From NCBI GenBank assembly GCA_045125935.1, contig JBGVNW010000056.1:64715-128714 (forward strand): DNA of 64,000 nucleotides. Direction: 5' to 3'. Origin of the DNA: Bacilli bacterium (GTDB lineage Bacteria > Bacillota_I > Bacilli_A > RF39 > UBA660). The notes under the pieces are model-generated. The model had not been told where the DNA came from and did not search any database. It worked only from the letters and a program-made list of their open reading frames with translations. Of this stretch, positions 12,334 through 45,211 are shown in pieces. The number at the start of each line of letters is the position of its first letter. The first letter of the stretch is position 1. The position numbers and the translations under genes were made by a program.

Positions 12334-12341
12334 ATTTCTCC

Positions 12342-24319: not shown

Positions 24320-24340
24320 TTTATATCCTGTTGTTTACTA

Positions 24341-24799: not shown

Positions 24800-24822
24800 A
24801 TTGTGATTTCCTCCTTTCTTTA

Positions 24823-24857: not shown

Positions 24858-24879
24858 AATCTTTTATTAATTTTAATAG

Positions 24880-25467: not shown

Positions 25468-25588
25468 GAAATATTATAACATACTACTTACTGCTGCTTA
25501 TTAATTTTTAGGGGATTGGGGATTTCCCCATATTGAATTTTGTGGGAGTAAAAATTCAGTGCTTGCTATAACAAGCAGTGTTATTTTA

Positions 25589-26554: not shown

Positions 26555-26641
26555 TTACATTTCCTCCTTTATAATTGCAAAAGAGAGATTTATTTTAATC
26601 CCTCTTTTGTCTATGAAACATTGACTTATTTAGATAAGTTA

Positions 26642-27001: not shown

Positions 27002-27019
27002 TTTATCACTTTCCTTTCA

Positions 27020-29135: not shown

Positions 29136-29176
29136 GCTATCAGTCCTTTCTAAATAATTAATAAAAAAACATCAAA

Positions 29177-29893
29177 TTATTGATGTTCTGTTTGAATATT
29201 CAAATTGTTAAACTGACTTAGATAATATTTTGTGCCATCAACATATACTTTTACCCAACAGCCTACTGTGTTGAGGTATTTTCCACTAGTATACCCATAA
29301 TTAGTCACAAAACCATAAGTCTTATTTATTCTTTCTGCTTCACTCTTGCATTGTTCAATATCCTTAAAGCTTATTTCTTCACCATCGTAAAGAATTGCAT
29401 TCTCATATTCATATTGACTAATACCTAATATTTCCCATGCTGTTTTTTGTAGTTCTACTCTTGTTGTTGAATTTTCCAATTCATTATTTTCATAATTATC
29501 TTTCATGTTATTATTTTCGGCACTAACTATTACATTGTAATTCTCAGATTCATTATTATTAACTTTAGTCTCATCATCTAACTTTTCCTTAAGATTTTTT
29601 GAATCAGAAAAATTATGATTTAAACTTATGCTATCTTCACTTTCCACAGTTTCTTTAATTATTGATGAGCTGATTTCTGGTTTTTCCACAACTTCTGTAG
29701 ATAACTCTTCACTTTCTGAAGAAGTAATTTCAATAATTATTTCTTCTTTAAAATTTTCACTTTTACTTATTGATTTAGTATTCTGTTTAATTTCATCTTT
29801 TGTACAATTGCTTTCCTGAATTAAATTTTTGTTATTGATTAAAAACAAAAGTACAATTAATAGTATACTTGTAATAAAAATTATTTTTTTCAT
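29177..29893 (-). CDS. secreted/anchored protein with acidic low-complexity region, unknown function
   Basis: RBS AGGAAG precedes MKKIIFITSILLIVLLFL. An E/S-rich linker follows, then a C-terminal globular domain of about 100 aa. Confidence 0.45.
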   Translation of the reverse strand: MKKIIFITSILLIVLLFLINNKNLIQESNCTKDEIKQNTKSISKSENFKEEIIIEITSSESEELSTEVVEKPEISSSIIKETVESEDSISLNHNFSDSKNLKEKLDDETKVNNNESENYNVIVSAENNNMKDNYENNELENSTTRVELQKTAWEILGISQYEYENAILYDGEEISFKDIEQCKSEAERINKTYGFVTNYGYTSGKYLNTVGCWVKVYVDGTKYYLSQFNNLNIQTEHQ

Positions 29894-30046
29894 AATATCA
29901 ACTTCCTTTCTCGGAAGCAGATTAACATAATTTTTATATTTTTTCACTTATATAAATTTATATTTCTTTTTTTAGTTAGTAATATATAGTTAGTATATAA
30001 ATAAGGGAGGATTGTAAGGAGGGATTTTATGGAAAAGATACTCCCA

Positions 30047-30979
30047 CTACCTTTCCATTCTATTTTTATTTTTTTGTCGATTACTAAAATCAATTACAGC
30101 ATTAATAATATAATTTTCTATTTCCATCTCATTTTTTAAATTATTTGGTAGTACATTTTGTAATTTTCTTCTACTTACTTTTATTTTAGGAATTTGATTA
30201 GGTTTTTCTTCAGAAAATATTTTTTCAATTATATCTTCTGTTAAATTATTTTGTTGGCTTAGTTCTTTTAATTTAATAGACTGCGAAAGCGATGGGGTTA
30301 TGTCGTTATACTCAATTAGTGAAAATAAATATTCTTGCTCTTTTTCTTTTAAATACGATAATTCTACAGCAGGTCGAAATGCTATAATTTCATTATCTAC
30401 TAATTCTAATATTTTGGGTATTAAATTTGTTAATCGGATGTATCGATAAACTTGTACTCTGCTATCATTCTTATCTTTTCCTATTTTCTTGGCACTATCT
30501 AACTTTGTTTCCAGTGGGTACAAAGTTAAATCACTTCTTCTCCCTTGTCTATTCAATGCTTCCATTTTCATTTTGTATGCAAAGGCTTTCTCGCTTGGTA
30601 ATATCTTCTCACGTTGGAGATTACTATCAACCATAATAACAGTTGCAGCATCATCAGTTAATTCTTTAATAATACATGGTATCTTTTCTAATTTTGCAAG
30701 TTTGCTTGCTTTCATTCTTCGATGTCCAGATATCATTTCATATGTACCATCGTTATTACTACGTATTATAGTTGGAACTAAGACCCCATGTTCTTTTATG
30801 CTTTGTGCTAACTTCATAAGGTCATCATCTTCTTTTACTTTAAACGGATGGTTCTTAAAATTACTAATTTGAGAAATTGGTATTTCTACAATTTTTTCTC
30901 TTACTTCATCATTATTGTTATCTATAAAAAAATCATCTAATAACGAAGTTGTTTGATTATCTATGTTATCTACCTCCAA
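30047..30979 (-). CDS. ParB/Spo0J-like nuclease-domain protein
   Basis: 310 aa. NHPFKV and GVLVPTIIRSNNDGTYEMISGHRRMKASKLA are ParB N-domain boxes. Confidence 0.8.
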   Translation of the reverse strand: MEVDNIDNQTTSLLDDFFIDNNNDEVREKIVEIPISQISNFKNHPFKVKEDDDLMKLAQSIKEHGVLVPTIIRSNNDGTYEMISGHRRMKASKLAKLEKIPCIIKELTDDAATVIMVDSNLQREKILPSEKAFAYKMKMEALNRQGRRSDLTLYPLETKLDSAKKIGKDKNDSRVQVYRYIRLTNLIPKILELVDNEIIAFRPAVELSYLKEKEQEYLFSLIEYNDITPSLSQSIKLKELSQQNNLTEDIIEKIFSEEKPNQIPKIKVSRRKLQNVLPNNLKNEMEIENYIINAVIDFSNRQKNKNRMER

Positions 30980-31051
30980 AAAAGCTTATCATTTTATTTG
31001 ATAAGCATATTTCACTTAATTTGTTATGCATACACTTTATCTATTCACAGG

Positions 31052-31823
31052 CGCCGATAAGGTCACTGCTGCTGTATTGTCTGGAGACGCTGATATCGGC
31101 TTTTCTGGAAGTGAGGCCACTATTTATGTTTACAATGGTGGAGAAGAAGACTATTTAAAGACATTTGCACAATTAACACAAAAAGATGGATCATTTTTAG
31201 TATCTAGAGAGAAAATTGATAATTTTACTTTAGATGATTTAAAGGGAAAAACAATTATTGCAGGACGTGCTTATGGTATGCCTGAAATGACTCTTAAATA
31301 TGCCTTAAAACAAAATGGTATTAATCCTGATGAAGAATTGGTATTAGATACATCTGTTGCATTTGCAGCTATGAGTGGTGCTTTTATTGGAGGACAAGGT
31401 GATTTTGTCTCATTATTTGAACCAAATGCATTAGAGCTTGAAAAAAACGGCTATGGATATGTAGTTGCATCAATTGGTGAATTAGGTGGAGTTGTTCCAT
31501 ATACATCATACTCTGCTAGAATTAGTTATATTGAAGAAAATGAGGAGTTAATTTCTAATTTTACTAAAGCAATTCAAAAAGGAATTGACTATGTACATAA
31601 TCATTCTGACAGAGAAGTTGCGGAAGTTATATTAAATCAATTTCCTGATACATCATTAAATGATTTAGAAAAAGTAATTGCTCGATATAGAGAAATTGAA
31701 GCATGGCCTACTACTACAACATTTAATGAGGAGTCATTTGATCATCTTCAAGATATAATGCTTGATTATGGAGCAATTGATGAAAAGGTTCCTTATAGTA
31801 AGTTGATTTATAATGAAAAATAA
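31052..31823 (+). pseudogene. ABC substrate-binding protein, 3' fragment
   Basis: It continues ...ANG|ADKVTAAVLSGDADIGFSGSEA in the same frame. 221 nt (5800-6020) plus 772 nt gives 993 nt, or 331 codons. Confidence 0.85.
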
Positions 31824-32228
31824 ATTGCTTAGTATTAATAATTTGGGGAAATTTTATTATAGTAAAAAAGATGAAGTTGAAGCAATTCGTGATGTAAGTT
31901 TTGATATATTTGAAAATGAATTTATCTCAATTGTTGGGCCAAGTGGTTGTGGAAAATCAACTATTCTATCAATTCTTGGTAACTTAGAAGATAAAACTAA
32001 TGGAGATGTTACTTTCTATAAGGATTTAACAATTGGTTATATGTTACAAGATGATTGTTTGTTTTTTTGGAGAACAATTCTTGATAATTGTCTTATTGGA
32101 TTAGAAATTAATAATAATTTGACTATCGAAAATATTGAATATGTTATTTCTTTACTAAAAACATATGGTCTTTATGATTTTAAGGATAAATATCCCTCTA
32201 GTTTATCTGGAGGTATGAGACAAAGAGT
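31813..32228 (+). pseudogene. ABC importer ATPase, fragment 1 of 3 (Walker A to LSGGMRQRV)
   Basis: GPSGCGKST (Walker A) and LSGGMRQRV (signature), then a break. The track ORF reads on into element DNA. Confidence 0.9.
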
Positions 32229-32308
32229 TCTACGAATACTGTATACACACGGGATAATTACTTACAAGTGGCTTATAACCCTTATAAATAATGGAAAAGA
32301 GGTATATT

Positions 32309-32707
32309 ATGTTATTAGATAAAAATTCAAAAAAAGTTATAGACTTAATTCAAAAGTATGATAATTTAAGTGATATTGATAAAATTAGATTAGCAATCCA
32401 TTTACTAGAAAATAAAAATTTCAATGTAAATTTTAATGTAAGAGATATGATTATTTTGTTAAAACAAGTTTTAAATGTATTAGATCCAAATTATACTAAA
32501 GTAATAACTAATTTTAGCAAATATAAACATTTATTATTTTTTTCAGCCAAGTATTTAGAACTTAATGAAAAAGAAAAAAAGCATTTCTCTGTTGAAATGA
32601 TATTTAATATCTATGAAAATGATTTTAAAGATAAAGTTATTAATGATGAAATAAATAGTCATTTATTAGTTTATGATTATTGTTATTCTCTAATTAATAA
32701 TGAGTAA
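32309..32707 (+). CDS. hypothetical protein
   Basis: RBS AAGAGG precedes the ATG at 32309. 132 aa, helical, with no recognisable motifs. Confidence 0.4.
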   Translation: MLLDKNSKKVIDLIQKYDNLSDIDKIRLAIHLLENKNFNVNFNVRDMIILLKQVLNVLDPNYTKVITNFSKYKHLLFFSAKYLELNEKEKKHFSVEMIFNIYENDFKDKVINDEINSHLLVYDYCYSLINNE

Positions 32708-32710
32708 AAT

Positions 32711-32742
32711 AAATCCCTAATAGGCATTATTAGGGATTTTTT
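32711..32742. terminator. bidirectional intrinsic terminator between convergent genes
   Basis: 12-bp perfect stem aaatccctaata/tattagggattt with a 5-nt loop, flanked by an A-run and a T-run. Confidence 0.7.
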
Positions 32743-32762
32743 GAATTAAACCTATATACTCA

Positions 32763-33716
32763 TTAATCAAGTACACACTCAATAATATATCTAGGTCTCG
32801 CTTTAGTTTCCTTATATATTTTACCAATATATTCTCCAATCACACCAAGACATAGAGTTTGAATACCACCTATTAACCAAATTGAACAAACAATAAACGT
32901 CCAACCAGATACCGTATTACCAATTAATTTCATAATAACAGAATAAATCAAAACTACAAAACTAAGTATTAAAATAATAAAACCGATTGAAGTAATCATT
33001 CTTAAAGGTTTTATACTAAATGAAGTTATTCCATCAATAGCAAACGCTAACATTTTCTTTAACGGATATTTAGATTCACCTGCTACTCTTTCGCTTCGCT
33101 CGTAGTAAGCTATATCAGTTTTATATCCAACTTGAGGAACTATACCTCTTAAGAATAAATTAACTTCTTTAAACTCACTTAAACCTTCTAAAGCTCTTTT
33201 ACTCATTAAACGACAGTCTGCATGATTAAATACAACTTCAACGCCCATAATGTTCATTAATTTATAAAAAGCTTCTGCAGTAAACTTTTTAAAAAACGTA
33301 TCTTTTTTTCTTGAACTTCTAACACCATAAACAACATCAGCACCGGCATTATATTTTTTTATCATATCATCCATTACATTAATATCATCTTGTAAATCAG
33401 CATCCATACTAATACAGATATCTGCATGATTTTTTGCATACATTAAACCTGCAAGCAAGGCATTTTGATGTCCTCTGTTTCTAGTTAAATTAATTCCTAC
33501 GTACATATGATTTTCTTTATGTATCTTAGTTATAATTTCCCACGTTTTATCCTTAGAACCGTCATTAACTAAAACCACTTTACTATTTTCACTAATTAAA
33601 CCTTCTTCCATTAAACTACTCATTTTTTTATCAAGTTCTTTTTTTGTTAGTGGTAGTGCTTCTTCTTCGTTATAACAAGGTATAACTAAATTTAATACTA
33701 AATTATTTTTCTTCAT
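32763..33716 (-). CDS. GT2 polyprenol-phosphate glycosyltransferase (GtrB/CsbB-like)
   Basis: 317 aa. IPCYNEEEAL, VLVNDGSKDKT and SMDADLQDD (DxD), plus two C-terminal TM helices. This is the classic GtrB architecture. Confidence 0.8.
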   Translation of the reverse strand: MKKNNLVLNLVIPCYNEEEALPLTKKELDKKMSSLMEEGLISENSKVVLVNDGSKDKTWEIITKIHKENHMYVGINLTRNRGHQNALLAGLMYAKNHADICISMDADLQDDINVMDDMIKKYNAGADVVYGVRSSRKKDTFFKKFTAEAFYKLMNIMGVEVVFNHADCRLMSKRALEGLSEFKEVNLFLRGIVPQVGYKTDIAYYERSERVAGESKYPLKKMLAFAIDGITSFSIKPLRMITSIGFIILILSFVVLIYSVIMKLIGNTVSGWTFIVCSIWLIGGIQTLCLGVIGEYIGKIYKETKARPRYIIECVLD

Positions 33717-35772
33717 TTACTTCTTCCTTCTTTCTAAATAACACTATAACTTCCATGCCTAATGTTAATATCATTATTGTCATATATTCTAGATAAGTAT
33801 AAATTCCTCTTTCTTCATTATTTACTACTTCAAACATCAAATCACCAGTTTCTTCATTTCCATTCACTTCTAAAATACCATTCGGATAATAATCAAATTT
33901 TCCTTTATATGCGATATAAACTTCTAAATCACTTGTACTATCCGAACTTAATCTTAATGTATAACTACCACCTTCATAAGTTTTATCTAAATAAAAATCT
34001 GTATATTTTTTATCTTTCAAATCATTTTTTTTAAATTCTTTTTCATACACAACTTCATTTTTAGTTATTAACTCCAACTTATAAGTTGCATCATCTATTT
34101 CATTAACTTTAAATTTTAATCTTATTTTATTAAAACTATCATATAAATCTAATGTTTGGGTGATAACCGTTTCTTTATTTAAAGAAATATACTTAACCTT
34201 GTTTACACTGTCTTTTGCTACTATATTTTCTTTATAACTAATACCTGTATATTTATTAAAACTAAAAGCAAATAATGCTAAAGTTAAGACTAGTATAATA
34301 CATTTAAAGTATTTATAAAATTTGAATTTCTCATAATTGGTATTTAAAGTATCATAAGAACATGTACCTATTAGTATTAACCACGGTAAGAATGATAAAC
34401 CATATCGTGGACATACTTCCCAAACAAGATAGAAAAATACTGCTCCAAACAAGCTAATTGCTATAATTGATTTCTTACCACTTTTATAAATATTAATAAG
34501 AGATATTATTGCCATAAACATAACTACTATTTTAGAGAACTGTAATAAATAATTTATAACAATATTTTTATCTTCTAATAAATAAGAATAAGACGGATTA
34601 AAGTCATTAACTAATTCTAAATATTTTTGATAACTATAATCTCCTTTACCCCAAACAGAAACTAATTTAACTACTAATAATTTCACTGTTCCAAATGGAC
34701 CTAAATCACTCAATCTATTTTTTATTTCTTTAATATTTAAATCTGTTCTTTCTGAAACGTTTGAGGCACTACTACTTAGGTTATAATCATCTTGGGAATA
34801 ATATCCATAACTTTTTTCGTTAACTCCCATCATAATCCAATGTGTCATTGGAAATTCTTTATCAACATTAACATTTGTGAAAAATTTATTCTCAATAGTA
34901 TCAATACAAGTTATTGTTAATATTGCCCCAATTATTATTGGTGCAAACTTCTTTAACACTATTAATATCTTTTTAGTAAATATTAAATATACAAAATATG
35001 CTACTAGTATAAATATTGCAACAGCCCTTATCTTATAACCAATTATTGCGATGATACCGATCAATAAGCCATATAGAACGTTAGATTTTAAATTTTTTTC
35101 GTCTTTTGTTTTAACTATTAAATAAATTAAAATACTGGCAAATGGTAACATTAATACATCTGTATAGTAATATGATACATATAAATAAAAGATTGGAGAT
35201 AATACACATATAAATAAACTTAATAAGCCTTTATTGAGATCCCAAACTTTATTAACAGTTTTATAAGTAAATAATGACATAACAGAAATACATATTGTAC
35301 TTAGTAAAGAAAATAAAATTTGATTGCTAATAGGAATAATCTTTTGTAACCCATATAAAATAATTAATAAAAATCTATTATTAGGATAAACAGAATAGTA
35401 AACATTATTTAATATCGAATCTGTATCATTTAAACTATTTATTTCGGTTAAAATATGTATTAAATCAACTTGAGGAATACTACTAATTACAAAAGCACTT
35501 ATAAGTAATAAGATAAATTGCAATCCTAATAAAATACCTACTATTATTTTCTTTTTCTTATTATCAAGTTTGGTAATAACCTTATATAATTTATTTAATA
35601 AAAGTAAATATATAATTGAACCAACAATTAAAACTAACGGATTTAAATAATAATAACTACGATTAGTATAGAAAAATATCGCTCCTATTAAAGAAATAGA
35701 AAAACATATTATGGTAAAAATTAACAAGAAATTATTAACAAAATTAAACATTTTATTTACTAGATTTTTCAT
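33703..35772 (-). CDS. large polytopic membrane protein with C-terminal extracytoplasmic domain (GT-C/GtrC-like glycosyl acceptor transferase candidate)
   Basis: 689 aa. More than 12 TM helices over about 470 aa, then a soluble domain of about 180 aa and a final TM. It overlaps both neighbours, suggesting translational coupling. Confidence 0.55.
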   Translation of the reverse strand: MKNLVNKMFNFVNNFLLIFTIICFSISLIGAIFFYTNRSYYYLNPLVLIVGSIIYLLLLNKLYKVITKLDNKKKKIIVGILLGLQFILLLISAFVISSIPQVDLIHILTEINSLNDTDSILNNVYYSVYPNNRFLLIILYGLQKIIPISNQILFSLLSTICISVMSLFTYKTVNKVWDLNKGLLSLFICVLSPIFYLYVSYYYTDVLMLPFASILIYLIVKTKDEKNLKSNVLYGLLIGIIAIIGYKIRAVAIFILVAYFVYLIFTKKILIVLKKFAPIIIGAILTITCIDTIENKFFTNVNVDKEFPMTHWIMMGVNEKSYGYYSQDDYNLSSSASNVSERTDLNIKEIKNRLSDLGPFGTVKLLVVKLVSVWGKGDYSYQKYLELVNDFNPSYSYLLEDKNIVINYLLQFSKIVVMFMAIISLINIYKSGKKSIIAISLFGAVFFYLVWEVCPRYGLSFLPWLILIGTCSYDTLNTNYEKFKFYKYFKCIILVLTLALFAFSFNKYTGISYKENIVAKDSVNKVKYISLNKETVITQTLDLYDSFNKIRLKFKVNEIDDATYKLELITKNEVVYEKEFKKNDLKDKKYTDFYLDKTYEGGSYTLRLSSDSTSDLEVYIAYKGKFDYYPNGILEVNGNEETGDLMFEVVNNEERGIYTYLEYMTIMILTLGMEVIVLFRKKEEVNEEK

Positions 35773-36226
35773 AACTATCCTTCTTAAAAACTATTAATTT
35801 GCTTAATAAATAGTTTACTACAATTACTAATATCTGACTTACCAGTTTAAATATTTTATCATTACCTTTTAATATAGTTACAAACACAAACATTATTACC
35901 ATATCAAGTAAAAGCGTTGATACTCTTGCGCCGGTAAAAGTAATAAATTCTTTAAATTTATTTTTATTTTTACTATTAAATACAAATTCTCTATTTGTAA
36001 AATACGCAAATAAAACTCCAGCTATCCACGAAAAAAGATTTGCTATCTGTAACTCCACACTAACATTAGGATTTAATATAGTCAAACTCAACATATAATA
36101 AACAATTAAACTAATTAATGTAGTTAAAATTCCGAAGATTAAATAATTAATAATTTCCTTATATTTTTGATACAATTCTTTCACATACATCACCACAAAT
36201 AAATCTACATAATAATATTTTATCAT
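35753..36226 (-). CDS. GtrA-family flippase-like membrane protein
   Basis: About 145-157 aa with 4 TM helices. FTGARVSTLLLDM and NYLLSKLIVFK resemble GtrA-family features. The start may be ATG 36190. Confidence 0.65.
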   Translation of the reverse strand: MIKYYYVDLFVVMYVKELYQKYKEIINYLIFGILTTLISLIVYYMLSLTILNPNVSVELQIANLFSWIAGVLFAYFTNREFVFNSKNKNKFKEFITFTGARVSTLLLDMVIMFVFVTILKGNDKIFKLVSQILVIVVNYLLSKLIVFKKDSYEKSSK

Positions 36227-36247
36227 AAATTTCTATAATTAACTATT

Positions 36248-36934
36248 TTAACCTTCAAAAATAGAATCATATTTTTTATAATAATCATCATAGATCCAAT
36301 CCACTTGATGAAAATAAAAAGGTAACTGTTTTTTATCAATTTCACTATGTGGCAAAAATATATTATATAAATTGCTTTTGCGATTACTTATTACCTTAAT
36401 ATAAAATTTTTCTATTTCTTTAATATCTTTAGAATTGCTTAAACTTTTTGATTCTAAAAATAAATTTGCTTTTTGTAATGAATGATAAATATTATTTGTG
36501 TCTTGTTTAGCATAATAGCGAGTATTATAAACTAAATTTGCTAAAAACATTTTCTTAAAACCATTCAAAAATATTTCTGGACATTCATGAAAATCGGCAA
36601 CAACAAATAGTTCTTTATTATAGTTATTTTTTAAAGTTTGTTCTAATATAATTAGAAGTTCATTATGATTTATTGTATACGTATCCCTAACATAACCTAT
36701 ATACTTATCTAATATAGATATAAGATTTTCTTCTAAAGTAATTTCATTTTTTTCATAAAGTAATTTAGAATTTAATTTTATAGTACCTTTTTTTATTTTT
36801 TTAATAAGTCTATGTAATACTTCTAAACTTAATAATTTATATACTTCACCACTGCAACTATAGATCCACAATAGCAAATGTTTCTTCATTCGCTTTATTT
36901 GTATTGTATCTTTATTCAAGTAATCTCTTTGCAT
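36248..36934 (-). CDS. hypothetical protein (228 aa), first gene of the gtr-like operon
   Basis: The long ORF is co-directional with and close to the gtrA-like gene. No motifs recognised. Confidence 0.4.
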   Translation of the reverse strand: MQRDYLNKDTIQIKRMKKHLLLWIYSCSGEVYKLLSLEVLHRLIKKIKKGTIKLNSKLLYEKNEITLEENLISILDKYIGYVRDTYTINHNELLIILEQTLKNNYNKELFVVADFHECPEIFLNGFKKMFLANLVYNTRYYAKQDTNNIYHSLQKANLFLESKSLSNSKDIKEIEKFYIKVISNRKSNLYNIFLPHSEIDKKQLPFYFHQVDWIYDDYYKKYDSIFEG

Positions 36935-37057
36935 TTAAATTTTTCTTTCAATAGTTTTATTTTTACTGCAATTAAATTATAACACAAATCAGCAAAAAAC
37001 AGTCTTTAAATAAGCAAATTCTTAATATTTTTATTTTAAATGGGAAAATTATTATAG

Positions 37058-37495
37058 GTGGTAGCTATGATAGATTTTCAAAGATTAAAAGATATTAGAG
37101 AAGATAATGATATAAATCAAGAAACAATGTCACAAATACTTGGTGTACCTCGTTCTACTTATTCAATGTGGGAACTAGGTATAAGTGTTATTCCTTTAAA
37201 ACCTTTATGTGACTTTTCAGATTATTTTAATATTACTTTAGATTATGCTTTAAATAAGACTAGTAAGAATTTAATTAAAGGTTTAGATTTACAAGTTCTT
37301 GCTAATAATATGAAAGAAATTAGAAAGAAAAATAATTTATCACAAGAAAATATAGCAGATATTCTTAATGTTACTCAAAGTTGTATAGTTAAATATGAAA
37401 AAGGTAGAGTTTATATATCGACAGAAAACTTATATAAATTTGCTAAAGAATTTAAAATCTCTATAAATGAATTATGTGGAAAAACAAAAAAATAG
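37058..37495 (+). CDS. XRE-family regulator with two tandem HTH domains
   Basis: INQETMSQILGVPRSTYSMWELG and LSQENIADILNVTQSCIVKYEKG. Confidence 0.75.
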   Translation: MVAMIDFQRLKDIREDNDINQETMSQILGVPRSTYSMWELGISVIPLKPLCDFSDYFNITLDYALNKTSKNLIKGLDLQVLANNMKEIRKKNNLSQENIADILNVTQSCIVKYEKGRVYISTENLYKFAKEFKISINELCGKTKK

Positions 37496-37523
37496 TATGA
37501 AAATTTAGATCATACTATTTTTT
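37492..37523 (+). terminator. intrinsic terminator
   Basis: Stem atagtatga/tcatactat with a 9-nt loop, followed by ttttt. Confidence 0.65.
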
Positions 37524-37580
37524 ATGACGGAATGACAGATAAAAGTGGGTACCCATAAACTCCTGTCATTCTGTCATTTT

Positions 37581-38069
37581 TTATTTTTCTTTATTATTTT
37601 TTATATAAAATTCTTTTGCAAATTTTGAAGTATGTTTTATATTAGAATATATCATTAATCTATTAAATAATTGTGTAATCGCTAATAAACAAAATAATGC
37701 AATAATTATATAAATATTTTGGGTTATGTTTTCATTTATTTCTCTTAAGAAGATAACAGCTAGAAATCCAAGACCACTTAATATGATTGTTATTGCAGTT
37801 GCATCTCTAAATCCCCTTATCATTTTATCAGTTTCATTTTTTTCAGATTTTAAACCATCTACATCCCAATGCATAATTGATACTACATCAACAATTAAGA
37901 ATAATATTATAGCTATCCAATATAATCCATACATTAAATTAGTTCTTAATATTAATGTTAAAGTAAATATTATTGCCGTTAATATATCTACAATAATAGT
38001 TATAGTATTTATTACTTTATCATCAACATGAATAATTTTATAAGTAATTTTATCTATTATCTTCTTCAT
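37581..38069 (-). CDS. membrane protein (4 TM) co-transcribed with the repressor
   Basis: MKKIIDKITYKIIH starts at 38069 and overlaps the 3' end of the XRE gene by about 20 nt. Confidence 0.45.
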   Translation of the reverse strand: MKKIIDKITYKIIHVDDKVINTITIIVDILTAIIFTLTLILRTNLMYGLYWIAIILFLIVDVVSIMHWDVDGLKSEKNETDKMIRGFRDATAITIILSGLGFLAVIFLREINENITQNIYIIIALFCLLAITQLFNRLMIYSNIKHTSKFAKEFYIKNNKEK

Positions 38070-38571
38070 TTTTATCTTTCTCCCTTTCTCTAAAGTCATC
38101 TACATTAGTATTTAATAGTAATCTTTCAATTTCTTTAGCAGTTTTAATTTGATATTCTGTATCTTCTACTGTTTGTTCCATTATTTCTCTTTCTTGTGGT
38201 GATAAATTTTCATCTTTTAATTTTTCTTCAAAAGATTTAATTAGTTTTTCCCAAGTTCTTATGCTTCCTGAAGTATTAGCAAGTGCTTCTTGTATTTCTT
38301 CTCCTTTAAGACTTTTATAATAACTTTTCAAAAAAGGATTTAAATCTGTGACTTGAAAACCTAAACCTGCAGCATACATTAAATCATTATAATTTATTCC
38401 GATATGTTGACTAATTTTTCTTAATATTTTAGGATTAGGAACCTCTCTTTCTCCTGATTCAATTCTTGATATATCTGAATGACTTACTTTTGCAAGTTCG
38501 GCTAATTGTCTCATAGAAAGATTCTTTTCTTCACGACCTTTTTTTATTAGTTCTCCAACCTTTGTTGTCAT
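38050..38571 (-). CDS. XRE-family repressor with extended C-terminal helical domain
   Basis: RBS AAAGGAG precedes MTTKVGELIKKGREEKNLSMRQLAELAKVSHSDISRIESGE. Confidence 0.75.
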   Translation of the reverse strand: MTTKVGELIKKGREEKNLSMRQLAELAKVSHSDISRIESGEREVPNPKILRKISQHIGINYNDLMYAAGLGFQVTDLNPFLKSYYKSLKGEEIQEALANTSGSIRTWEKLIKSFEEKLKDENLSPQEREIMEQTVEDTEYQIKTAKEIERLLLNTNVDDFREREKDKNEEDNR

Positions 38572-38594
38572 ACGAATTACTCCTTTCACAAACG

Positions 38595-38623
38595 ATTATA
38601 ACACTTATGGAGCAAAATTGCAA
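38595..38623 (-). promoter_or_regulatory. near-consensus sigma-A promoter for the repressor gene
   Basis: On the minus strand: TTGCAA (38623-38618), a 17-nt spacer, then TATAAT (38600-38595). Confidence 0.6.
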
Positions 38624-38652
38624 CATTTTTAAAGAAATTGGTGCTAAAATGC

Positions 38653-38680
38653 TTGACATACATTTTTGATATGCTATAAT
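38653..38680 (+). promoter_or_regulatory. near-consensus sigma-A promoter for the rightward (replication/mobilization/recombinase) operon
   Basis: TTGACA (38653-38658), a 16-nt spacer ending in TGc, then TATAAT (38675-38680). It is followed by the inverted repeat GTTGCAC-N15-GTGCAAC (38689-38717). Confidence 0.6.
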
Positions 38681-38894
38681 GGTGTTAAGTTGCACCAGAG
38701 ATAAAAACAAGTGCAACGAAAAATTGTTCTTTGAAAATTTAGTCTTTGTGGAAATCGCCGATATGCTATAAAGTAAAAAAATGCAAGGCTAGATATCTCT
38801 ATTGGCATGAGAGTTGTTGGTATTACTAAAACCATCCATAGATAGATTGCTTAACAAGTATCTATAAACATCAATTAAGAAAGCGAGGTAATAA

Positions 38895-39125
38895 ATGAAT
38901 CCAAACGAAATATTAAAAGTAATTTCAAAACAATGGTGTTCTCTTGAAGATTTAAAAAAATTAACAGGTTTAGGAAAAAATAATTTATTAAAATTAAAAC
39001 GAGATATTAAAAACAATTTAAATAATAACTCTATTCCTAATAAATTACTTCCTATGAATGAAGTTGTTAAATATCTAAATATTGATATAGATTATTTAAA
39101 AAAACTTGATAGAAAGGAGGAATAA
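38895..39125 (+). CDS. small HTH-like protein (regulator or excision-directionality candidate)
   Basis: 76 aa. CSLEDLKKLTGLGKNNLLKLKRDIKN is HTH-like. It is the first ORF of the rightward operon, and its stop abuts the RBS of the next gene. Confidence 0.4.
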   Translation: MNPNEILKVISKQWCSLEDLKKLTGLGKNNLLKLKRDIKNNLNNNSIPNKLLPMNEVVKYLNIDIDYLKKLDRKEE

Positions 39126-39126
39126 A

Positions 39127-40080
39127 ATGCTAACGATAAGTGAAGTTAAAAAAAATTACACAAAAAAAGATTTCATAGTTGATAGCTTTATGAAATCTAG
39201 TGGGATATACTGTTTAGTTGCAAGACCTAAAGTCGGCAAGTCATTATTCGGACTACAACTTGCTGACTCAATCGCAAACGGAACAACATTTCTAGGATTT
39301 AAAACAAATCCATCTCCTGTCTTATATATTAGCACAGAAATGAGTTCAATGCAAATATGTGAGCGAATTGAAAAGATGAATTTACACTTTACTGATGATA
39401 ATTTTTTCATAGAAGATCAAGCATCAAAAGATAGAAAACTTAATCATATGGACTTACAATTAGTTTTTCAAGACTTTGCTCTTAATCATAATGGTAAGTT
39501 TATTATAGTTGATATGTTTACTGGTGTTGATGTTAATAATGGTTATGATTTAAATAATTATCAAGATATAAATCAATATGTATTTCCAAAATATAGAGAG
39601 TTATGTCAAAAATATGGATTTACAATATTATTAATTCATCATTTAAATAAGAATAATACTTCATTAGGAAGTACTGCTATAGATGGTGCTGTTGATGGAA
39701 TAATCACTCTAAAAAAAGATAATAATTATCCAAACAAATTATTTTTAAAATACGACAGCAGAGATTATCCAGAGATGGAATTAGTTTTAAAAAGAAATGA
39801 CAATTTAATATATGAAATATCAGAACTAGAAAAAACAGATTTACCACAAGAAATAAAATTATTTTTAAATTATGCAATTAGAAAAAAAGAATTTGAATTT
39901 ACAGCTAGTGAGATTGTGAGTACTCTAAACTTAATGATTGAACCATCAGCATTTGGAAGATTATTAAGTAATCATTTAGATGTTCTTGAAAAAGAAGGAC
40001 TTTATATTACTGATGCGAGAAAATCTGATAAAAGAAGAAAACATGCATTGTATGAAGAACCAATATTTGAAAATGAATAA
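39127..40080 (+). CDS. RecA-fold AAA ATPase (RepA/DnaB-C-terminal-like)
   Basis: RBS AGGAGGAA precedes the ATG at 39127. Walker A ARPKVGKS and Walker B-like FIIVDMF, followed by LLIHHLNK. Confidence 0.6.
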   Translation: MLTISEVKKNYTKKDFIVDSFMKSSGIYCLVARPKVGKSLFGLQLADSIANGTTFLGFKTNPSPVLYISTEMSSMQICERIEKMNLHFTDDNFFIEDQASKDRKLNHMDLQLVFQDFALNHNGKFIIVDMFTGVDVNNGYDLNNYQDINQYVFPKYRELCQKYGFTILLIHHLNKNNTSLGSTAIDGAVDGIITLKKDNNYPNKLFLKYDSRDYPEMELVLKRNDNLIYEISELEKTDLPQEIKLFLNYAIRKKEFEFTASEIVSTLNLMIEPSAFGRLLSNHLDVLEKEGLYITDARKSDKRRKHALYEEPIFENE

Positions 40081-40324
40081 TTTTCATAAAAGTTTTTGTT
40101 AACTTTTTTCTAAAAAGTTATATAAGTAAAAAATGAGTGTGGCACGTTTTGTTGCTTTAGCAATGAAAGTGGCGATAACGAATATTTTTACAATTATTAA
40201 ATGTAGTTTATCTACTTTTAATAATTCATTAAATAATAAGTATCTAGTAGATAGTTATTATTTAATCTTGTTTATAGCATTTGCCTTTACGATTAGTTTA
40301 GGCATTTGTGAAGAACAAGCATAA

Positions 40325-40394
40325 GGGGTCTTTAGGGGAATCACCTAAACTCACGATTGGGCTATGCCCTAGTGAGATAGGTCTAAAAGACCTC
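40325..40394 (+). promoter_or_regulatory. candidate oriT: long imperfect compound hairpin upstream of the MobV gene
   Basis: The outer stem is ggggtctttag (40325-40335) with ctaaaagacctc (40383-40394). The inner stems are ctcac (40350-40354) with gtgag (40372-40376), and gggc (40359-40362) with gccc (40366-40369). It ends 36 bp before the mob start. Confidence 0.35.
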
Positions 40395-40429
40395 TTTTAC
40401 AAAGATGCAATAACGAAAGGAGGCAAAAA

Positions 40430-41869
40430 ATGTATGACGGAAATCAAGTTGTTCGAGTAGTAAGTAAATATAAAAAACATGATGCTTATAATATTGGAGT
40501 TGAAATGAGTGAAAGAAAAGGAACAGGAAATTATGATAAAGAAAGAACACAATTTAATGTTGAATATGTTTCACTTAATGAAAAAAATTTATATCAAGAA
40601 ATAAAACAAACGCTAAAAAATAGGAATATTGAATTTAATGATAAACCCTCTACCAATATGTTTAATGGAATAACATTCTCAAGTGGACCTGAATTTTTTG
40701 AAACACTTGGAATGAAATTTGTAGATAGTGGTAGAACTTATCATGAAGGTAAAAAGAAAGGTCAAATTGTAAAAATACCAGAGATCAAATCTAAAGAAGA
40801 TATACCTAAAACTGTATCATATTATTTTGATTCTTGTATGGACTTTCTAAAAGATTATGTTGGTGAAGAAAATATCCTTTTAGCACAAATTCATTATGAT
40901 GAAGATACACCTCATCTTCAAGTATATTTTCTACCTATTGTTGATACTGTAAAAAGAAAACAATATGTAAAAGACAAAGATGGTAATGTTGTTAAAGAAA
41001 AACATGTAAATGCTAATGGAAATATAAATTATACACCTAAACTACTTCGAGATGAAAATGGTAAAATTATATATTCAGAAGTTAAAGGAAAATTTCTAAA
41101 TTGTGATGAGTTTTGGAAACAACGAGGTGGTCAATATTCTTTTGGTAAATTACAAGATGAGTTTAATGATTTTATAACAAAACGAGGTTTTAATTTATAT
41201 CGTGGAGATATTGGAAGTAAAGTAGAAAATCAAACTAAAACTGAGTGGCAAATTAAAGAATTAAATGCCGAATTAGAAGAATTAAAGCAAGAAAAAGAAA
41301 ATGTATTAAGAGTAATAGAAAACTCTAAAAATGGGCTTGAAACAGCTAATAAATCTAATGATAAAGATACTCTACTAAATCCCACTAAAAGAAAACTTGG
41401 AGGATATAAAGAAGAAGATGTAAATAAGATTATTGATTATACCAAAGACTTAAAAAAACAAGTTGTTGTTTTAAACACAGATAATAAAAATAAAGATATT
41501 GAAATAAACAAATTATTAAAAGAAAATAATACTTTTAGAAACAATAAGGAACTCATAAAAAGAAATGAGCTTATTAAAGAACAAAAATCTACTATTAAGG
41601 AACAAAAACAGGAAATAAATAGATTAAATGATGTTATTGATATATTGAATAATCAAATAGAAAATTTACAAGCAAAATTTGATAAATTCAAAGAAAAAAT
41701 GTATAACTTCTGCAATAAAATTTGCAGAGCATTGGCTCATAAGATTGGACTTCATTATGATAAAGATGATGATATTAATTACTATGAAATGGAAAGTTAT
41801 GCATATGACATCAATAGAAAATACGATAAAGAAAAAGATAAATCTGATGATTTTGAAATTGGAATGTAA
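40430..41869 (+). CDS. MobV-family (Mob/Pre) relaxase
   Basis: 479 aa. AQIHYDEDTPHLQVYFLPI is the HxDE...PH motif of Mob_Pre relaxases. The C-terminus is a long coiled coil. Confidence 0.8.
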   Translation: MYDGNQVVRVVSKYKKHDAYNIGVEMSERKGTGNYDKERTQFNVEYVSLNEKNLYQEIKQTLKNRNIEFNDKPSTNMFNGITFSSGPEFFETLGMKFVDSGRTYHEGKKKGQIVKIPEIKSKEDIPKTVSYYFDSCMDFLKDYVGEENILLAQIHYDEDTPHLQVYFLPIVDTVKRKQYVKDKDGNVVKEKHVNANGNINYTPKLLRDENGKIIYSEVKGKFLNCDEFWKQRGGQYSFGKLQDEFNDFITKRGFNLYRGDIGSKVENQTKTEWQIKELNAELEELKQEKENVLRVIENSKNGLETANKSNDKDTLLNPTKRKLGGYKEEDVNKIIDYTKDLKKQVVVLNTDNKNKDIEINKLLKENNTFRNNKELIKRNELIKEQKSTIKEQKQEINRLNDVIDILNNQIENLQAKFDKFKEKMYNFCNKICRALAHKIGLHYDKDDDINYYEMESYAYDINRKYDKEKDKSDDFEIGM

Positions 41870-42097
41870 TTAATAAATTCTCTCTCTTAAACTATAAGTA
41901 GCAATAACTATATATAAAATATAAATATTATAAATTTTAAAAAAATTGAAAAATGTACCAAAATTTTATCCCTAAGTATAAAGAAGTAAAAACGAAAGTG
42001 AGGATTGATATTATGAATAAAACAAAGTACAAAAATAATAAACATTACTGCTATATTAGTTTAAAATCACACTTTAAATAATATATTTAAATTAGAG

Positions 42098-42238
42098 GTG
42101 AGCTTTATAAATATAGTCTATAATGTTAAAGAAGTAGTAAATAAAACTATAACCGATAACGATTTAAAAGAGATTATAAATAAAAAGTTGTTAAATATTA
42201 TATTATTTATGGAAACTTGCACAAATGAGTGTAATTAA
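42098..42238 (+). CDS. possible 46-aa ORF upstream of the IME recombinase
   Basis: Own translation from GTG: VSFINIVYNVKEVVNKTITDNDLKEIINKKLLNIILFMETCTNECN. The RBS-like AGAGGTG overlaps the start codon, so the start is doubtful. Confidence 0.2.
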   Translation: MSFINIVYNVKEVVNKTITDNDLKEIINKKLLNIILFMETCTNECN

Positions 42239-42309
42239 ATGGTATAATTGTATTGGTTATAAGTTTAACTTGATAAGTAATTATTGCCTTAAGTTAGGAG
42301 GTAATAGTT

Positions 42310-43923
42310 ATGAATGAAATGGAGAGTGTTAGAGAGAAGATATTATTAAGAGTTGTTATTTATTTAAGATTATCAAATGAAGATAGAGATAAAATTAATA
42401 AAGATGATGATAGTGAATCTATTAAAAATCAAAGAAATATGTTGCTAGATTATATCGATAAAAATCCACAATTTATGTTGGTTGATGAATATTGTGATGA
42501 AGATTTATCGGGGGCTGGTACTTATAGACCTGAATTTGAAAGATTAATTAGAGATTGTGAAAATGGGAAAATTGATGTAGTTTTATGTAAAAGCCAATCT
42601 AGATTTTCAAGAGATATGGAAATCGTTGAAAAGTATATTAACAATAAATTCAAAGAATGGAATATAAGATTTATCGGTTTATCTGATAATGCTGATACTG
42701 ACAATAGCGGTAATAAAAAATCAAGACAAATAAATGGATTAGTTAATGAATGGTATTTAGAAGATGTTTCAGATAATATTAGAAGTGCTTTTAATTCAAA
42801 AATGAAGCAAGGAGAATTCATTTCTCCTTTCGCCTCATTTGGTTATGAAGTATCTAAAGAAGATAATAACAAGTTAGTTGTTGATCCTGTTGCTAGTGAA
42901 GTTGTTAAAGAAATATACGATTTATATTTAAAAGGTATGGGATTTACTGGAATAGCTCATTACTTAAATGATAAAAATATTCCTTGCCCCTCTCTTTATA
43001 AATATAGAAAAGGTATTAAATTAAATGTAATTAGTAATAGACCTAGAGAGGAAATTAAATGGAATACAAATGCTATTAAAACAATATTAAAAAATGAATT
43101 ATATTTAGGACATTTAATTCAAGGAAAAAGAACTACCGTTAGTTATAAAAATCATAAAGTAATTAATAAACCTGAAGATAAATGGATTCGTAGAGAAAAT
43201 ATGCACGAAGCTATAATTGATGAGGAAACATTTGCAAAAGTTCAAATTGCTTTGAAAGAAAGAACAAAACCTATGAAATCAACAGGAATTGTTCATAACT
43301 TCTCTGGCAAAGTATTTTGTAAAGAATGTGGTCGCTATATGAGAAAAAAGAATTCTTCTAAACATGAATATCTTGTATGTTCTAATAACAGAGATGGTTA
43401 CAATGATTGTATAAATAAAGCAGCGATTAGGTATGATGCTTTAGAGGAATTAGTATTAAGTCATATTAATAAAAAAGTTAAAAAGTTTTATGATTTAAAT
43501 ATTTTAGAAACAGAATCTTTGAAAAAAGAAAATAATAAGTTCACTAAAAGAATTAATTTATTAACAAAACAAAAAGAGACCATAGTTAATCAAATGGCAA
43601 AGACTAAAAATTATTTAAAAAATCTTTATGAAGATAAAGTTAATGGAATAATTAATGCAGAACAATTTAAAGAATTAATTACTAATTATAATAATGATGA
43701 TGAAAAGTTAAAAGACCAATTAAAATCTATTGAAAATGAGATTAACTATTATACACTAAAAGAATCTTCAAATAAAAATACAAAAGAATTATTTAATAAA
43801 TATCAACAATTAGAAAAATTAAACAGAGTTATAGTAGATGAATTTGTAGATAAAATCTATATCGGCAAAATCAATGAAGAAACAAATACAAGAGATATTG
43901 AAATTAAATGGAATTTTGAATAA
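42310..43923 (+). CDS. large serine recombinase (IME integrase)
   Basis: 537 aa with RBS AGGAGG. VVIYLRLSNEDRD, NQRNML and LCKSQSRFSRD form the resolvase domain. A zinc-ribbon region (CKECGRY...CSNN) and a C-terminal coiled coil follow. Confidence 0.9.
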   Translation: MNEMESVREKILLRVVIYLRLSNEDRDKINKDDDSESIKNQRNMLLDYIDKNPQFMLVDEYCDEDLSGAGTYRPEFERLIRDCENGKIDVVLCKSQSRFSRDMEIVEKYINNKFKEWNIRFIGLSDNADTDNSGNKKSRQINGLVNEWYLEDVSDNIRSAFNSKMKQGEFISPFASFGYEVSKEDNNKLVVDPVASEVVKEIYDLYLKGMGFTGIAHYLNDKNIPCPSLYKYRKGIKLNVISNRPREEIKWNTNAIKTILKNELYLGHLIQGKRTTVSYKNHKVINKPEDKWIRRENMHEAIIDEETFAKVQIALKERTKPMKSTGIVHNFSGKVFCKECGRYMRKKNSSKHEYLVCSNNRDGYNDCINKAAIRYDALEELVLSHINKKVKKFYDLNILETESLKKENNKFTKRINLLTKQKETIVNQMAKTKNYLKNLYEDKVNGIINAEQFKELITNYNNDDEKLKDQLKSIENEINYYTLKESSNKNTKELFNKYQQLEKLNRVIVDEFVDKIYIGKINEETNTRDIEIKWNFE

Positions 43924-44056
43924 AATTCAAAAATAAAAAAGGAAATTCAAAACTTTTGTAGAATAATATAAGTGAGAGGTTATACACTTCTATAACCTTT
44001 TGCTTAATACATATTTTAATACATATTAAAAATATATAGTAAAGGATGGTGAATAA

Positions 44057-44914
44057 ATGAAACAAGATAATATGCATTTAATTAATAAAATATTTAACAA
44101 TGAAACAATTAGAACTATTTGGGATAAGGATGAAGAAAAATATTATATTAGTATCGTTGATATTGTTGGTGTTTTAGCTGATAGTAAAGAACCTAGAAAA
44201 TATTGGAATTGGTTAAAAAATAAGTTATTAAAAGAAGAAAATTTTGAAACGTCTAGTATTACTAGACAGTTGAAATTAAAAGCTACTGACGGTAAATATC
44301 GTATGACTGATGTTTGTGATATTGAAGGTATGTTTAGAATAATTGAATCTGTGCCTAGTAAAAATGCTGAACCTATAAAACAATGGTTAGCTCATTTAGG
44401 TAAAGAAAGAATTGATGAAGTGTTTGACCCATCATTAACAATGCAAAGAGCAATAGATACATATCGTGCTAAAGGTTATGATGAGGCATGGATTTCTAAA
44501 AGAATTAAAGGCATTCAAGAAAGAAAAAGATTAACTGATGTTTGGAAAGATGGAGGCGTTGAAAAAACTCGCGAATATGCAATGCTTACTAATGAAATAT
44601 ATAAAAGTTGGTCAGGTATGAAAGCAAATGAATACAAACAATTTAAAGGAATTAGAAAAGAATCTTTACGAGATAATATGACTGATATAGAAGTTCTACT
44701 TACTGATTTAGGCGAAATCGCTACTCGTGATATAGCAGAATCTGAACATCCACAAGGATTTAAAGAAAATATGAAAGTAGCTCGTAAAGGTGGACAAGTT
44801 GCTAATGATGCTAGAAAATCTTATGAGAAAGCAATTAAAAAATCGGCTATATCAAATCAAAATGCTTTAAATTATCAATATATAGATGATAAAAAACAAA
44901 TAGAAAATAAATAA
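44057..44914 (+). CDS. Bro-N-domain protein
   Basis: 285 aa. FNNETIRTIWDKDEEKYYISIVDIVGVLADSKEPRKYW fits the Bro-N pattern. It lies between the recombinase and the right end. Confidence 0.55.
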   Translation: MKQDNMHLINKIFNNETIRTIWDKDEEKYYISIVDIVGVLADSKEPRKYWNWLKNKLLKEENFETSSITRQLKLKATDGKYRMTDVCDIEGMFRIIESVPSKNAEPIKQWLAHLGKERIDEVFDPSLTMQRAIDTYRAKGYDEAWISKRIKGIQERKRLTDVWKDGGVEKTREYAMLTNEIYKSWSGMKANEYKQFKGIRKESLRDNMTDIEVLLTDLGEIATRDIAESEHPQGFKENMKVARKGGQVANDARKSYEKAIKKSAISNQNALNYQYIDDKKQIENK

Positions 44915-45049
44915 CTCTGTTCCCGACAATTTGTCGGAAAGTAATAAAAATCTTAAAAATACAAGTTAAACATAAAAAAGCGAAATTTTAAAAGCCTTAT
45001 TTTTCAAGGCTTTGATAAGGTATTAGTGTCTACATTATATTCGTAGAGT

Positions 45050-45211
45050 TGCTTTAATTAGGACACTAGCAATGAAACCGGATATATTACTTTTGGATGA
45101 GCCAATGTCTGCGTTAGATTCTCAGTCAAGACTTGCAATTAGTGATGACATATATAAAATTATCAAAAAAGAAGGTAAAACTGCTGTTATGGTTACACAT
45201 GATATTGCTGA
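45050..45211 (+). pseudogene. ABC importer ATPase, fragment 2 of 3 (Walker B to H-loop)
   Basis: ALIRTLAMKPDILLLDEPMSALD...GKTAVMVTHDIAE. It is only 162 nt and is bounded by two different elements. Confidence 0.9.

Follow-up and report, generated by a model that had tools for sequence, protein, structure and literature searches.

A probable integrative mobilizable element with a Gtr-type glycosylation cargo splits an ABC transporter gene in uncultured gut Bacilli

Why does the gene for an ATP-binding cassette (ABC) transporter ATPase harbor recombination and DNA-transfer genes together with a set of membrane glycosyltransferases? This question is raised by a 12.8-kb insertion in a 64,000-nt stretch of a Bacilli bacterium genome (assembly GCA_045125935.1, contig JBGVNW010000056.1, positions 64,715 to 128,714 of the forward strand), hereafter the window, meaning the whole stretch that was analyzed. 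An original prediction, made from the sequence alone, had described the insertion as a mobilizable element that encodes a large serine recombinase (LSR) and carries a surface-glycosylation cargo. We find that the element occupies window 32227-45049 (12,821 bp, 13 genes), between the Arg and Val codons of the sequence LSGGMRQR/V in a NitT/TauT-type ABC transporter ATPase gene, which it splits, and that it probably is an integrative mobilizable element (IME).

Both ends of the element were read from its junctions. The open reading frame (ORF) at 31813-32322 encodes an ABC ATPase that departs from the alignment of its family after ...LSGGMRQRV, the frame resumes at 45048, and taking the element out in silico restores a single ABC ATPase reading frame. 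The left junction reads ...ATGAGACAAAGA GT/TCTACGAATA (upstream bases ...CAAAGA-GT-) and the right junction TATTCGTAGA GT/TGCTTTAATT, so that the limits first proposed, 32229-45047, were right to within 2 bp; every gene that had been listed between them was likewise found at its coordinates, with matching domains in Pfam and NCBIfam scans. The reconstructed attP, TATTCGTAGA-GT-TCTACGAATA (over an alternative span, ...CATTATATTCGTAGA-GT-TCTACGAATACTG...), forms a perfect 10-bp dyad centred on the GT crossover, and the ends of the whole family follow a dyad consensus, GTGTCT-N7-ATTCAAAGA/GT/TGGATGAAT-N7-AGACAC. Scans for tRNA genes and Rfam families gave no match at the element ends.

A search of JGI metagenomes with the 36-nt reconstituted attB returned two matches (contigs L095 and L096). 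In both, the empty attB is exact, the position corresponding to window 32229 is contiguous with that corresponding to 45045, and the operon of substrate-binding protein, ATPase and permease is uninterrupted. The DNA around the empty site is only ~66-78% identical to the window, and the two contigs are true empty sites in related species. That the 36-nt attB core is identical despite such flanks exceeds the expectation from synonymous drift in a coding region for the ABC signature.

The identical LSR protein is encoded on 14 public contigs, and near-identical copies of the element (98.7-100%) are found at this one codon with six distinct right flanks. On three contigs (L001, L003 and L004) the element is 99-100% identical across nearly its whole length, and on another (L011) it is a mosaic of 86-100% identity. 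The flanks of L001 are only 76% (ATPase DNA) and only 68% (permease DNA) identical to those of the window, and the combination of a near-identical element with such divergent flanks is direct evidence of recent inter-lineage transfer with re-insertion at the same codon. The element has spread recently between at least six lineages; the possibility raised with the original prediction, that this is an immobile conserved chromosomal locus, disagrees with the six flanks and with the empty sites. An exact look-up of the permease sequence for further contexts returned no record. The window has a G+C content of ~26%. Its close relatives are metagenome-assembled genomes (MAGs) that go under the labels uncultured Bacilli, Tenericutes or “Mycoplasma”; they come from the gut of sheep, rabbits, mice, chickens and humans, and their chromosomes measure 1.3-1.5 Mb. 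Candidatus Onthousia is among the named relatives, which are classed under Bacilli incertae sedis.

The LSR has all the domains that define this class, and its N-terminal segment IYLRLSNED contains the expected serine. Scanning one genome per species, we obtained 115 relatives and kept the best 80 loci, at 64-100% identity. At nearly all loci with a readable flank, the LSR gene is followed closely by the 3′ part of the same ATPase gene and by the permease gene; every element with both ends captured, 2.8-13.2 kb in size, separates the Arg codon from the Val codon. Dozens of species of uncultured gut Bacilli carry an element of this LSR family in their orthologue of the ABC ATPase gene. About twenty of the loci have the backbone of helix-turn-helix (HTH), AAA_25 and Mob genes, the Bro-N gene accompanies the LSR in many members, and glycosylation genes on an element of this family were found in the species-representative scan at L011 only. 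One complete MAG chromosome (OZ006970.1, 680-716 kb; L031 and L084) holds two relatives of the LSR, one 78% and the other 64% identical to the query, with ~14 kb between them, which suggests tandem or nested elements at the site.

The relaxase gene and the DNA in front of it point to conjugative mobilization. The protein passes Pfam Mob_Pre (45.7 bits versus a cut-off of 25.5), its family profile matches the relaxase domain of MobM (PDB 4LVI, E value 8.8e-14) in three colinear blocks, and H-x-D-E-D-T-P-H of motif III (H-x-D-E-D-T-P-H-x-Q/H) is invariant in the family. The 330 nt upstream of mob are conserved above the level of the Mob protein, even where Mob identity is 46-63%. Compensatory changes occur in two of the hairpins of this region and the third is invariant; the 23-mer core is exact in 22 loci and occurs once in the window, and Rfam gave no match for the region. 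The hairpin resembles the pMV158 nick region TAGTGTG/TT, and we read the conserved region as a candidate origin of transfer (oriT). Upstream of the hairpins lies an extra conserved non-coding block (40100-40260, GTAAAAAATGAGTGTGGCACGTTTTG ... AAGTGGCGATAACGAATATTTTTACAATTATTAAA), which includes a 19-nt near-perfect palindrome at 40228-40266 and could bind an accessory protein or serve as a replication origin.

In Pfam scans, no ORF of the element matched a type IV secretion system (T4SS) or coupling-protein family. A recognised class of IMEs combines a serine integrase with a MobV relaxase in the absence of a coupling protein (PMC5357655, PMC5704250), so that helper-dependent transfer would be expected here too. 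The conjugative neighbor that had been noted 1.2 kb away is indeed an integrative and conjugative element (ICE), with an end near 31030 and genes for an LSR (6047-7606), VirB4 (15552-17867), a VirD4-type coupling protein (20323-22176) and a MobA/VirD2 relaxase (22958-24319), as well as a CHAP hydrolase, ArdC, ParB and sortase-anchored TED/SpaA adhesins.

The cargo is a triad of genes for a GtrB-like GT2, a 689-aa GT-C glycosyltransferase and a GtrA-family protein, which share one strand and overlap by 14 and 20 nt (Table 1). The GT2 matches Synechocystis GtrB (5EKP, E value 1.2e-60) over its full length, as well as ArnC, and falls in phrog_841, “GtrB-like” (PHROGs, E value 1.3e-100). The 689-aa protein had been called GT-C-like, with the suggestion that it be classified by profile or structure, and it is a GT-C by both: it matches PMT_2 (Pfam, E value 3.9e-10, 40.6 bits versus a cut-off of 26.1), its residues 2-474 align with the GT-C family TIGR03766 (NCBIfam, E value 1.5e-19), and its model resembles GT-C enzymes. 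Copies that are 97% identical are named “glycosyltransferase family 39” by NCBI. The first homology search yielded only copies of 97-99% identity; alignment diversity was drawn from a 50%-clustered library, in which the family has 2,787 representatives at an E value ≤1e-3, mostly of 690-750 aa. The AlphaFold model, computed with 68 diverse homologues, has a pLDDT of 93.7, a pTM of 0.93 and ~14 membrane helices, with juxtamembrane extracytoplasmic loop helices starting at the invariant Asp103 (loop helix 103-117); D103, Y203, K369 and E452 are the invariant residues. All long Foldseek matches of this model are GT-C enzymes (STT3, AglB, ALG3/9/12, ArnT, AftB and Pmt1/2; probability 1.0), and the link to solved GT-C structures is through the model, as PDB searches with the single sequence and with a 69-sequence profile gave no relative. 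A YfhO-type transferase was rejected: no such profile matched, PMT_2 being the sole Pfam match and TIGR03766 the sole NCBIfam match, with none in PHROGs.

The triad is kept as a unit, with the same gene order in L091, L094 and L101-L103. On three contigs (L091-L093) the backbone is replaced by genes for insertion sequence (IS)-type transposases, and on a fourth (L094) LSR fragments only are left, beside ribosomal-protein genes; in all four decayed derivatives the triad is intact at ~97% nucleotide identity, which suggests that the cargo is under selection. Among diverged triads, the nearest (GT2 84%, GtrA 68% and GT-C 54% identical) lies inside a sibling ICE (L101-L103); the VirB4 of this ICE is 94% identical to its counterpart in the window ICE, and a VanZ-like gene follows the triad. 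Such modules thus circulate on both conjugative and mobilizable elements. The same pattern is that of phage gtrABC, in which GtrA and GtrB are conserved and the third component diverges fastest. GT-C relatives were not found in IMG/VR, with one weak match among 50,697 phage records and another among plasmids; practically none of the family is present in these three collections.

In known GtrB/GtrA/GT-C systems, a sugar is loaded on undecaprenyl phosphate (Und-P), flipped, and transferred outside the cell (PMC7389260, PMC10821137). Genes for sortase substrates, a CHAP hydrolase and CotH in the window indicate that the hosts are walled and that teichoic-type polymers are plausible acceptors for the triad sugar. 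A GT-C homologue adjoins genes for a TagD-like cytidylyltransferase and an acyltransferase, and a related genome has three TagF-like genes.

Based on these data, we think it likely that the element is an IME of the serine-integrase/MobV class with a Gtr-type glycosylation cargo, acting as follows. The LSR would insert a 12.8-kb circle at the LSGGMRQRV codon via the GT crossover, splitting the ATPase gene, and excision would restore the gene. After excision, the MobV-type relaxase would nick the conserved hairpins that precede its gene, and the DNA would exit through the coupling protein and T4SS of a conjugative element in the same cell. The ICE 1.2 kb away is one candidate, and the two could also be co-transferred. 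Judging from its family matches, the AAA_25 ATPase is a candidate helicase for replication of the excised circle and may aid that step, and the backbone genes are probably under the control of the divergent HTH pair, whose back-to-back promoters are near consensus. The GtrB-like GT2 would load a sugar onto Und-P on the inner side of the membrane for GtrA to flip; outside the cell, the GT-C would pass it on to an acceptor. This is probably a surface glycopolymer, such as a wall or lipoteichoic-type polymer, and it is probably bound by the membrane-anchored C-terminal beta-sandwich of the GT-C. The likely benefit would be an altered surface epitope or phage receptor, and hence possibly serotype conversion or phage resistance. 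The Bro-N protein may be a second phage-related cargo: it matches PDC-S13 of PADLOC, whose PDC families are untested defence candidates (PMC11514479), and a literature search found no paper on PDC-S13. A phage-related role for the element is a reasonable conjecture.

Several observations weigh against this reading, and they have to be set beside its rivals. The public assemblies yielded no circular or attP junction, hence we infer excision rather than see it; the attP 35-mer was not found in IMG/VR, and contigs with the left-end gene display the integrated form only. In one copy (L003) the GT-C gene is split into ORFs of 118 and 583 aa, the Foldseek TM-scores of the GT-C model are only ~0.3, and the best NCBIfam match of the GT2 is PgfS of the Streptococcus mutans protein-glycosylation system (E value 3e-72). 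Most of the difficulties concern the relaxase. Of the MobV relaxase with candidate oriT that had been predicted, the Mob_Pre assignment and the conserved oriT-like region stand, whereas the protein scores 84.4 bits with NCBIfam MobV, below the cut-off of 100, though positions 8-185 of the 187 in the profile are aligned, and has no conserved His in place of the catalytic His22 of MobM: motif I, HxxR, reads M/L-x-x-R at that position, where the N-terminal alignment is uncertain. No His is invariant in the first 150 residues of the family, which leaves the nicking chemistry uncertain, and at the final position of HxDExxPHxH the window protein has Gln, where its relatives have His or Gln. The chemistry may differ from that of MobM. 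The tyrosines Y2, Y14 and Y35 are invariant in the family; lying in the N-terminal domain of Mob (40430-41239), they hint at a different nucleophile within a MobV-like fold. Furthermore, many members of the LSR family have the LSR and Bro-N genes and no relaxase, at the same site in many species, so that conjugative mobilization is not the sole possible route of spread. These minimal members (~3.1-3.6 kb, with LSR and Bro-N genes alone, at the identical codon) favor the reading that the family spreads mainly without its own relaxase, by riding the ICE, by transduction, or by transformation and LSR integration, with Mob accessory or vestigial, and that its members are “intervening elements” that reversibly split the ATPase gene like a skin/SPbeta-type switch. 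The missing canonical His of the relaxase, the three LSR elements that split a single operon in the window, and the same analogy drawn in the IME literature with excision-dependent gene restoration (PMC5357655) fit this reading too. We nevertheless regard it as unlikely: about 20 loci keep an intact Mob together with the conserved upstream cis region and its compensatory changes, as would be expected if a functional relaxase/oriT pair were under purifying selection, nothing ties the transporter to a developmental programme, and the empty sites with an intact operon show that the insertion is not a fixed developmental feature.

A phage satellite resembling a phage-inducible chromosomal island, or a decayed prophage remnant, packaged in helper phage particles, would account for the divergent repressor-type switch, the small AlpA-like ORF, the DnaB/primase-helicase-like AAA_25 protein with its PHROG matches and the place of Bro-N in phrog_15286. 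Scans with Pfam, NCBIfam and PHROGs found no terminase, portal, capsid, capsid-redirecting or lysis genes, though, while a relaxase homologue and a conserved oriT-like site are present, GT-C relatives and attP are both absent from IMG/VR, and a gene content of this kind in 12.8 kb fits the integrative mobilizable class (PMC5704250, PMC5357655). Lacking packaging genes, the element was rejected as a prophage or satellite, an origin that we consider very improbable. A question of function rather than of vehicle is whether the cargo instead O-glycosylates surface proteins in a Pgf- or PMT-like manner, or adds sugars to some other part of the envelope, with a role in host interaction, stress tolerance or immune evasion, and does not modify a phage-receptor polysaccharide. 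The PgfS match of the GT2, the PMT_2-type, family 39 character of the GT-C and the sortase-anchored adhesins of the neighboring ICE all lean this way; the PgfS score is, however, far under the equivalog cut-off (243 versus 500 bits). The TagD-like and acyltransferase neighbors of GT-C homologues, the TagF-like genes in related genomes, and the weak matches of the GT-C beta-sandwich to carbohydrate-binding and jelly-roll folds speak for a glycopolymer, none of them decisively, and we judge glycosylation of proteins or of such other components rather unlikely.

The IME reading with a Gtr-type cargo can be compared with known systems, starting with Tn4451, in whose style the element had originally been described. 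This holds for the architecture: like Tn4451/Tn4453 (TnpX with the MobV relaxase TnpZ), it is a small element with an LSR and a Mob_Pre/MobV protein, with no T4SS or coupling protein, a 2-bp crossover and presumed mobilization in trans (PMC5704250). It does not hold for the recombinase, as the LSR is ~31% identical to plasmid-borne tndX-annotated genes, a value that refers to the named relatives recovered and not to TnpX or TnpZ themselves, and as Tn4451 inserts at many GA sites (PMC5704250), whereas the window LSR acts strictly at one codon of one gene. Moreover, the cargo is the glycosylation triad with PDC-S13 instead of catP/catD, regulator and AAA_25 modules are added, and the relaxase is without a conserved His at the MobM His22 position. 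The Tn4451 family proper was accordingly rejected, for the low LSR identity to tndX-annotated relatives and the different target behavior. The streptococcal IME_Class_6 (PMC5357655) shares the serine integrase, a Rel_PF01076/MobV relaxase and the absence of a coupling protein, and differs in hosts (here uncultured gut Bacilli), target site, cargo and relaxase subfamily, which is divergent here.

For the cargo, the gtrABC operons of Shigella and Salmonella temperate phages offer a parallel in GtrA, the GtrB-like GT2 and a polytopic acceptor-specific transferase, with A and B conserved and the third component divergent; unlike them, the window triad has a mobilizable carrier, a Gram-positive-type host and, in third place, a PMT_2-type GT-C that bears a beta-sandwich and a C-terminal anchor and is not a member of the GtrC family. 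The combination of an Und-P-sugar synthase, a GtrA-type flippase and an extracytoplasmic GT-C is also that of CsbB/YfhO/GtcA, GtlA/GtlB and the lactococcal CsdAB/CD/EF with CflA in Firmicutes. Such three-component systems decorate lipoteichoic acid, wall teichoic acid or rhamnose polysaccharides, with documented effects on phage sensitivity (PMC7389260, PMC10821137). They are chromosomal and often split across loci, whereas the window triad is contiguous, sits on a horizontally spreading element and has a GT-C without a YfhO match. An IS5 composite transposon of Oenococcus oeni (PMC12504390) is a further non-phage mobile element with a predicted GtrB-like GT2, GtrA and a Pmt2/ArnT-like GT-C; it differs in having a two-component regulator and no integrase/relaxase backbone, and in being limited to one species, with a system that is predicted only. 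Vehicle and cargo are thus each of a known type, and it is the combination of an LSR/MobV element with a glycosylation triad that is new.

Conversion of surface glycans by mobile DNA is textbook knowledge for Gram-negative prophages (gtrABC). To our knowledge, there is hardly any record of it for conjugative or mobilizable elements, and none for the uncultured small-genome Bacilli that are common in animal and human guts. The near-identical element in at least six backgrounds, the variant on the sibling ICE and the derivatives that keep the triad indicate strong selection on surface decoration, most plausibly exerted by phage or host. A wider view, which is possible and which we offer tentatively, is that gut Bacilli trade “surface-glycan editing” cassettes on linked ICEs and the IMEs that ride them. 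Through an LSR family that specialises in the ABC-signature codon, the IME would dock at a site conserved in dozens of species, with a relaxase that works without the canonical MobV His, and would deliver a two-layer anti-phage package made of PDC-S13 and of receptor glycosylation by a new GT-C subfamily with a tethered acceptor-binding beta-sandwich, whose divergent alleles would amount to transferable “serotypes.” A possible further use is as a recombinase/target pair: the LSR family is strictly site-specific, occurs in dozens of species, and has an attB and an attP that are exactly defined.

The remaining features of the element are collected in Table 1. The cargo had been predicted as an operon of four genes, including that for the 228-aa protein, and the four leftward genes do overlap or lie 21 bp apart. 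The GtrA/GT-C/GT2 triad is borne out; the 228-aa gene is not part of it, being linked to a regulator elsewhere and absent from the decayed derivatives. Homologues of the 228-aa protein form a small family confined to these lineages and are always divergent neighbors of a tandem-HTH gene, in contexts without glycosylation genes, and a role as a glycosylation component was ruled out by this context, in that the protein pairs with the tandem-HTH regulator and the triad is kept without it. Its model is confident and all-helical (pLDDT 90.4), and no structural relative was found for it. The two-gene module of 228-aa protein and tandem-HTH regulator (36248-37495) also occurs in L097, L099 and L100, including beside type I restriction-modification genes.

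Table 1. Coordinates of the element, its genes and sites, and the neighboring ICE in the window
Feature	Position	Strand	Remarks
~25-kb conjugative element (ICE), candidate helper	6031..31030	-	interrupts the gene for the substrate-binding protein in the same ABC operon
Target gene, 5′ part, up to ...LSGGMRQR	31813..32228	+	ABC_tran, E value 1.3e-17; intact homologues in L095 and L096
attL: crossover GT 32227-32228, then arm TCTACGAATA...ACACAC	32200..32260	+	family consensus AGA/GT/TGGATGAAT-N7-AGACAC
138-aa conserved left-end protein	32291..32707	+	no family match; homologues 59-93% identical at the left end of other members
Bidirectional intrinsic-terminator-like hairpin between the 138-aa gene and the cargo unit	32711..32739	.	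closes the leftward unit
GtrB-like GT2 polyprenyl-phosphate glycosyltransferase, 317 aa, DAD motif, two C-terminal transmembrane helices	32763..33716	-	Glycos_transf_2, E value 1.7e-24
GT-C glycosyltransferase, 689 aa	33703..35772	-	PMT_2-type membrane domain ~1-510, extracytoplasmic beta-sandwich 512-655, C-terminal transmembrane anchor 660-678
GtrA-family small membrane protein, putative lipid-linked sugar flippase	35753..36226	-	GtrA_DPMS_TM, E value 4.6e-23, 82 bits versus 26; phrog_2224
228-aa helical protein, first gene of the leftward unit	36248..36934	-	no Pfam, NCBIfam, PHROGs or PADLOC match
Tandem HTH_3 (XRE-type) regulator, divergent from the cargo unit	37058..37495	+	HTH_3, E value 1.4e-24, two stretches
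172-aa membrane protein, overlapping the end of the repressor-like gene	37581..38099	-	no significant family
cI-like HTH repressor candidate, 179 aa	38050..38589	-	HTH_19, E value 2.7e-14
Divergent promoter region (consensus matches only)	38595..38680	.	right TTGACA-16-TG-TATAAT, 12/12; left TTGCAA-17-TG-TATAAT
76-aa small protein, first in the rightward backbone unit	38895..39125	+	conserved with the AAA_25 gene in the family; no family match
AAA_25/DnaB_C/KaiC-type RecA-fold ATPase	39106..40080	+	AAA_25, E value 1.4e-21; PHROG helicase/primase families
Candidate oriT: three conserved hairpins, then invariant CTCAC-N4-GGGCTATGCCC-TA-GTGAG-ATAGG at 40350-40381	40258..40400	+	conservation
Divergent MobV-type relaxase, 479 aa	40430..41869	+	Mob_Pre, E value 9e-12; NCBIfam MobV; MobM 4LVI profile match
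Large serine recombinase (LSR), 537 aa	42310..43923	+	Resolvase, E value 6.5e-23; Recombinase, E value 5.5e-25; Zn_ribbon_recom, E value 2.8e-13; DUF4368
Bro-N protein, 285 aa	44057..44914	+	Bro-N, E value 1.6e-5; phrog_15286, E value 1.4e-97; PADLOC PDC-S13, E value 2.6e-108, full length
attR: arm GTGTCT...TATTCGTAGA, crossover GT 45048-45049, then the target gene resumes	45020..45075	+	junction sequence

The single three-gene ABC operon of the window holds three separate LSR elements. The ICE splits the substrate-binding-protein gene, leaving its N-terminal 77 codons at 5800-6030 and the rest at 31026-31823 (homologues have 333 aa). A third LSR element of 3.8 kb (~45224-48980) splits the same ATPase gene further 3′ (...VTHDIAE / AISMSDK...); it encodes an LSR of 512 aa (45262-46800, minus strand), a 497-aa protein (46993-48486, minus strand) with a weak capsid-like Pfam match only, and a 100-aa protein. 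It has no PADLOC or NCBIfam matches and is absent from L001, L095 and L096. Within the ICE, the segment 9000-13800 has a very low G+C content (18-25%) and contains five ORFs, two of which were scanned and gave no Pfam match; it lies at the same position as the triad of the sibling ICE and may be an alternative cargo.

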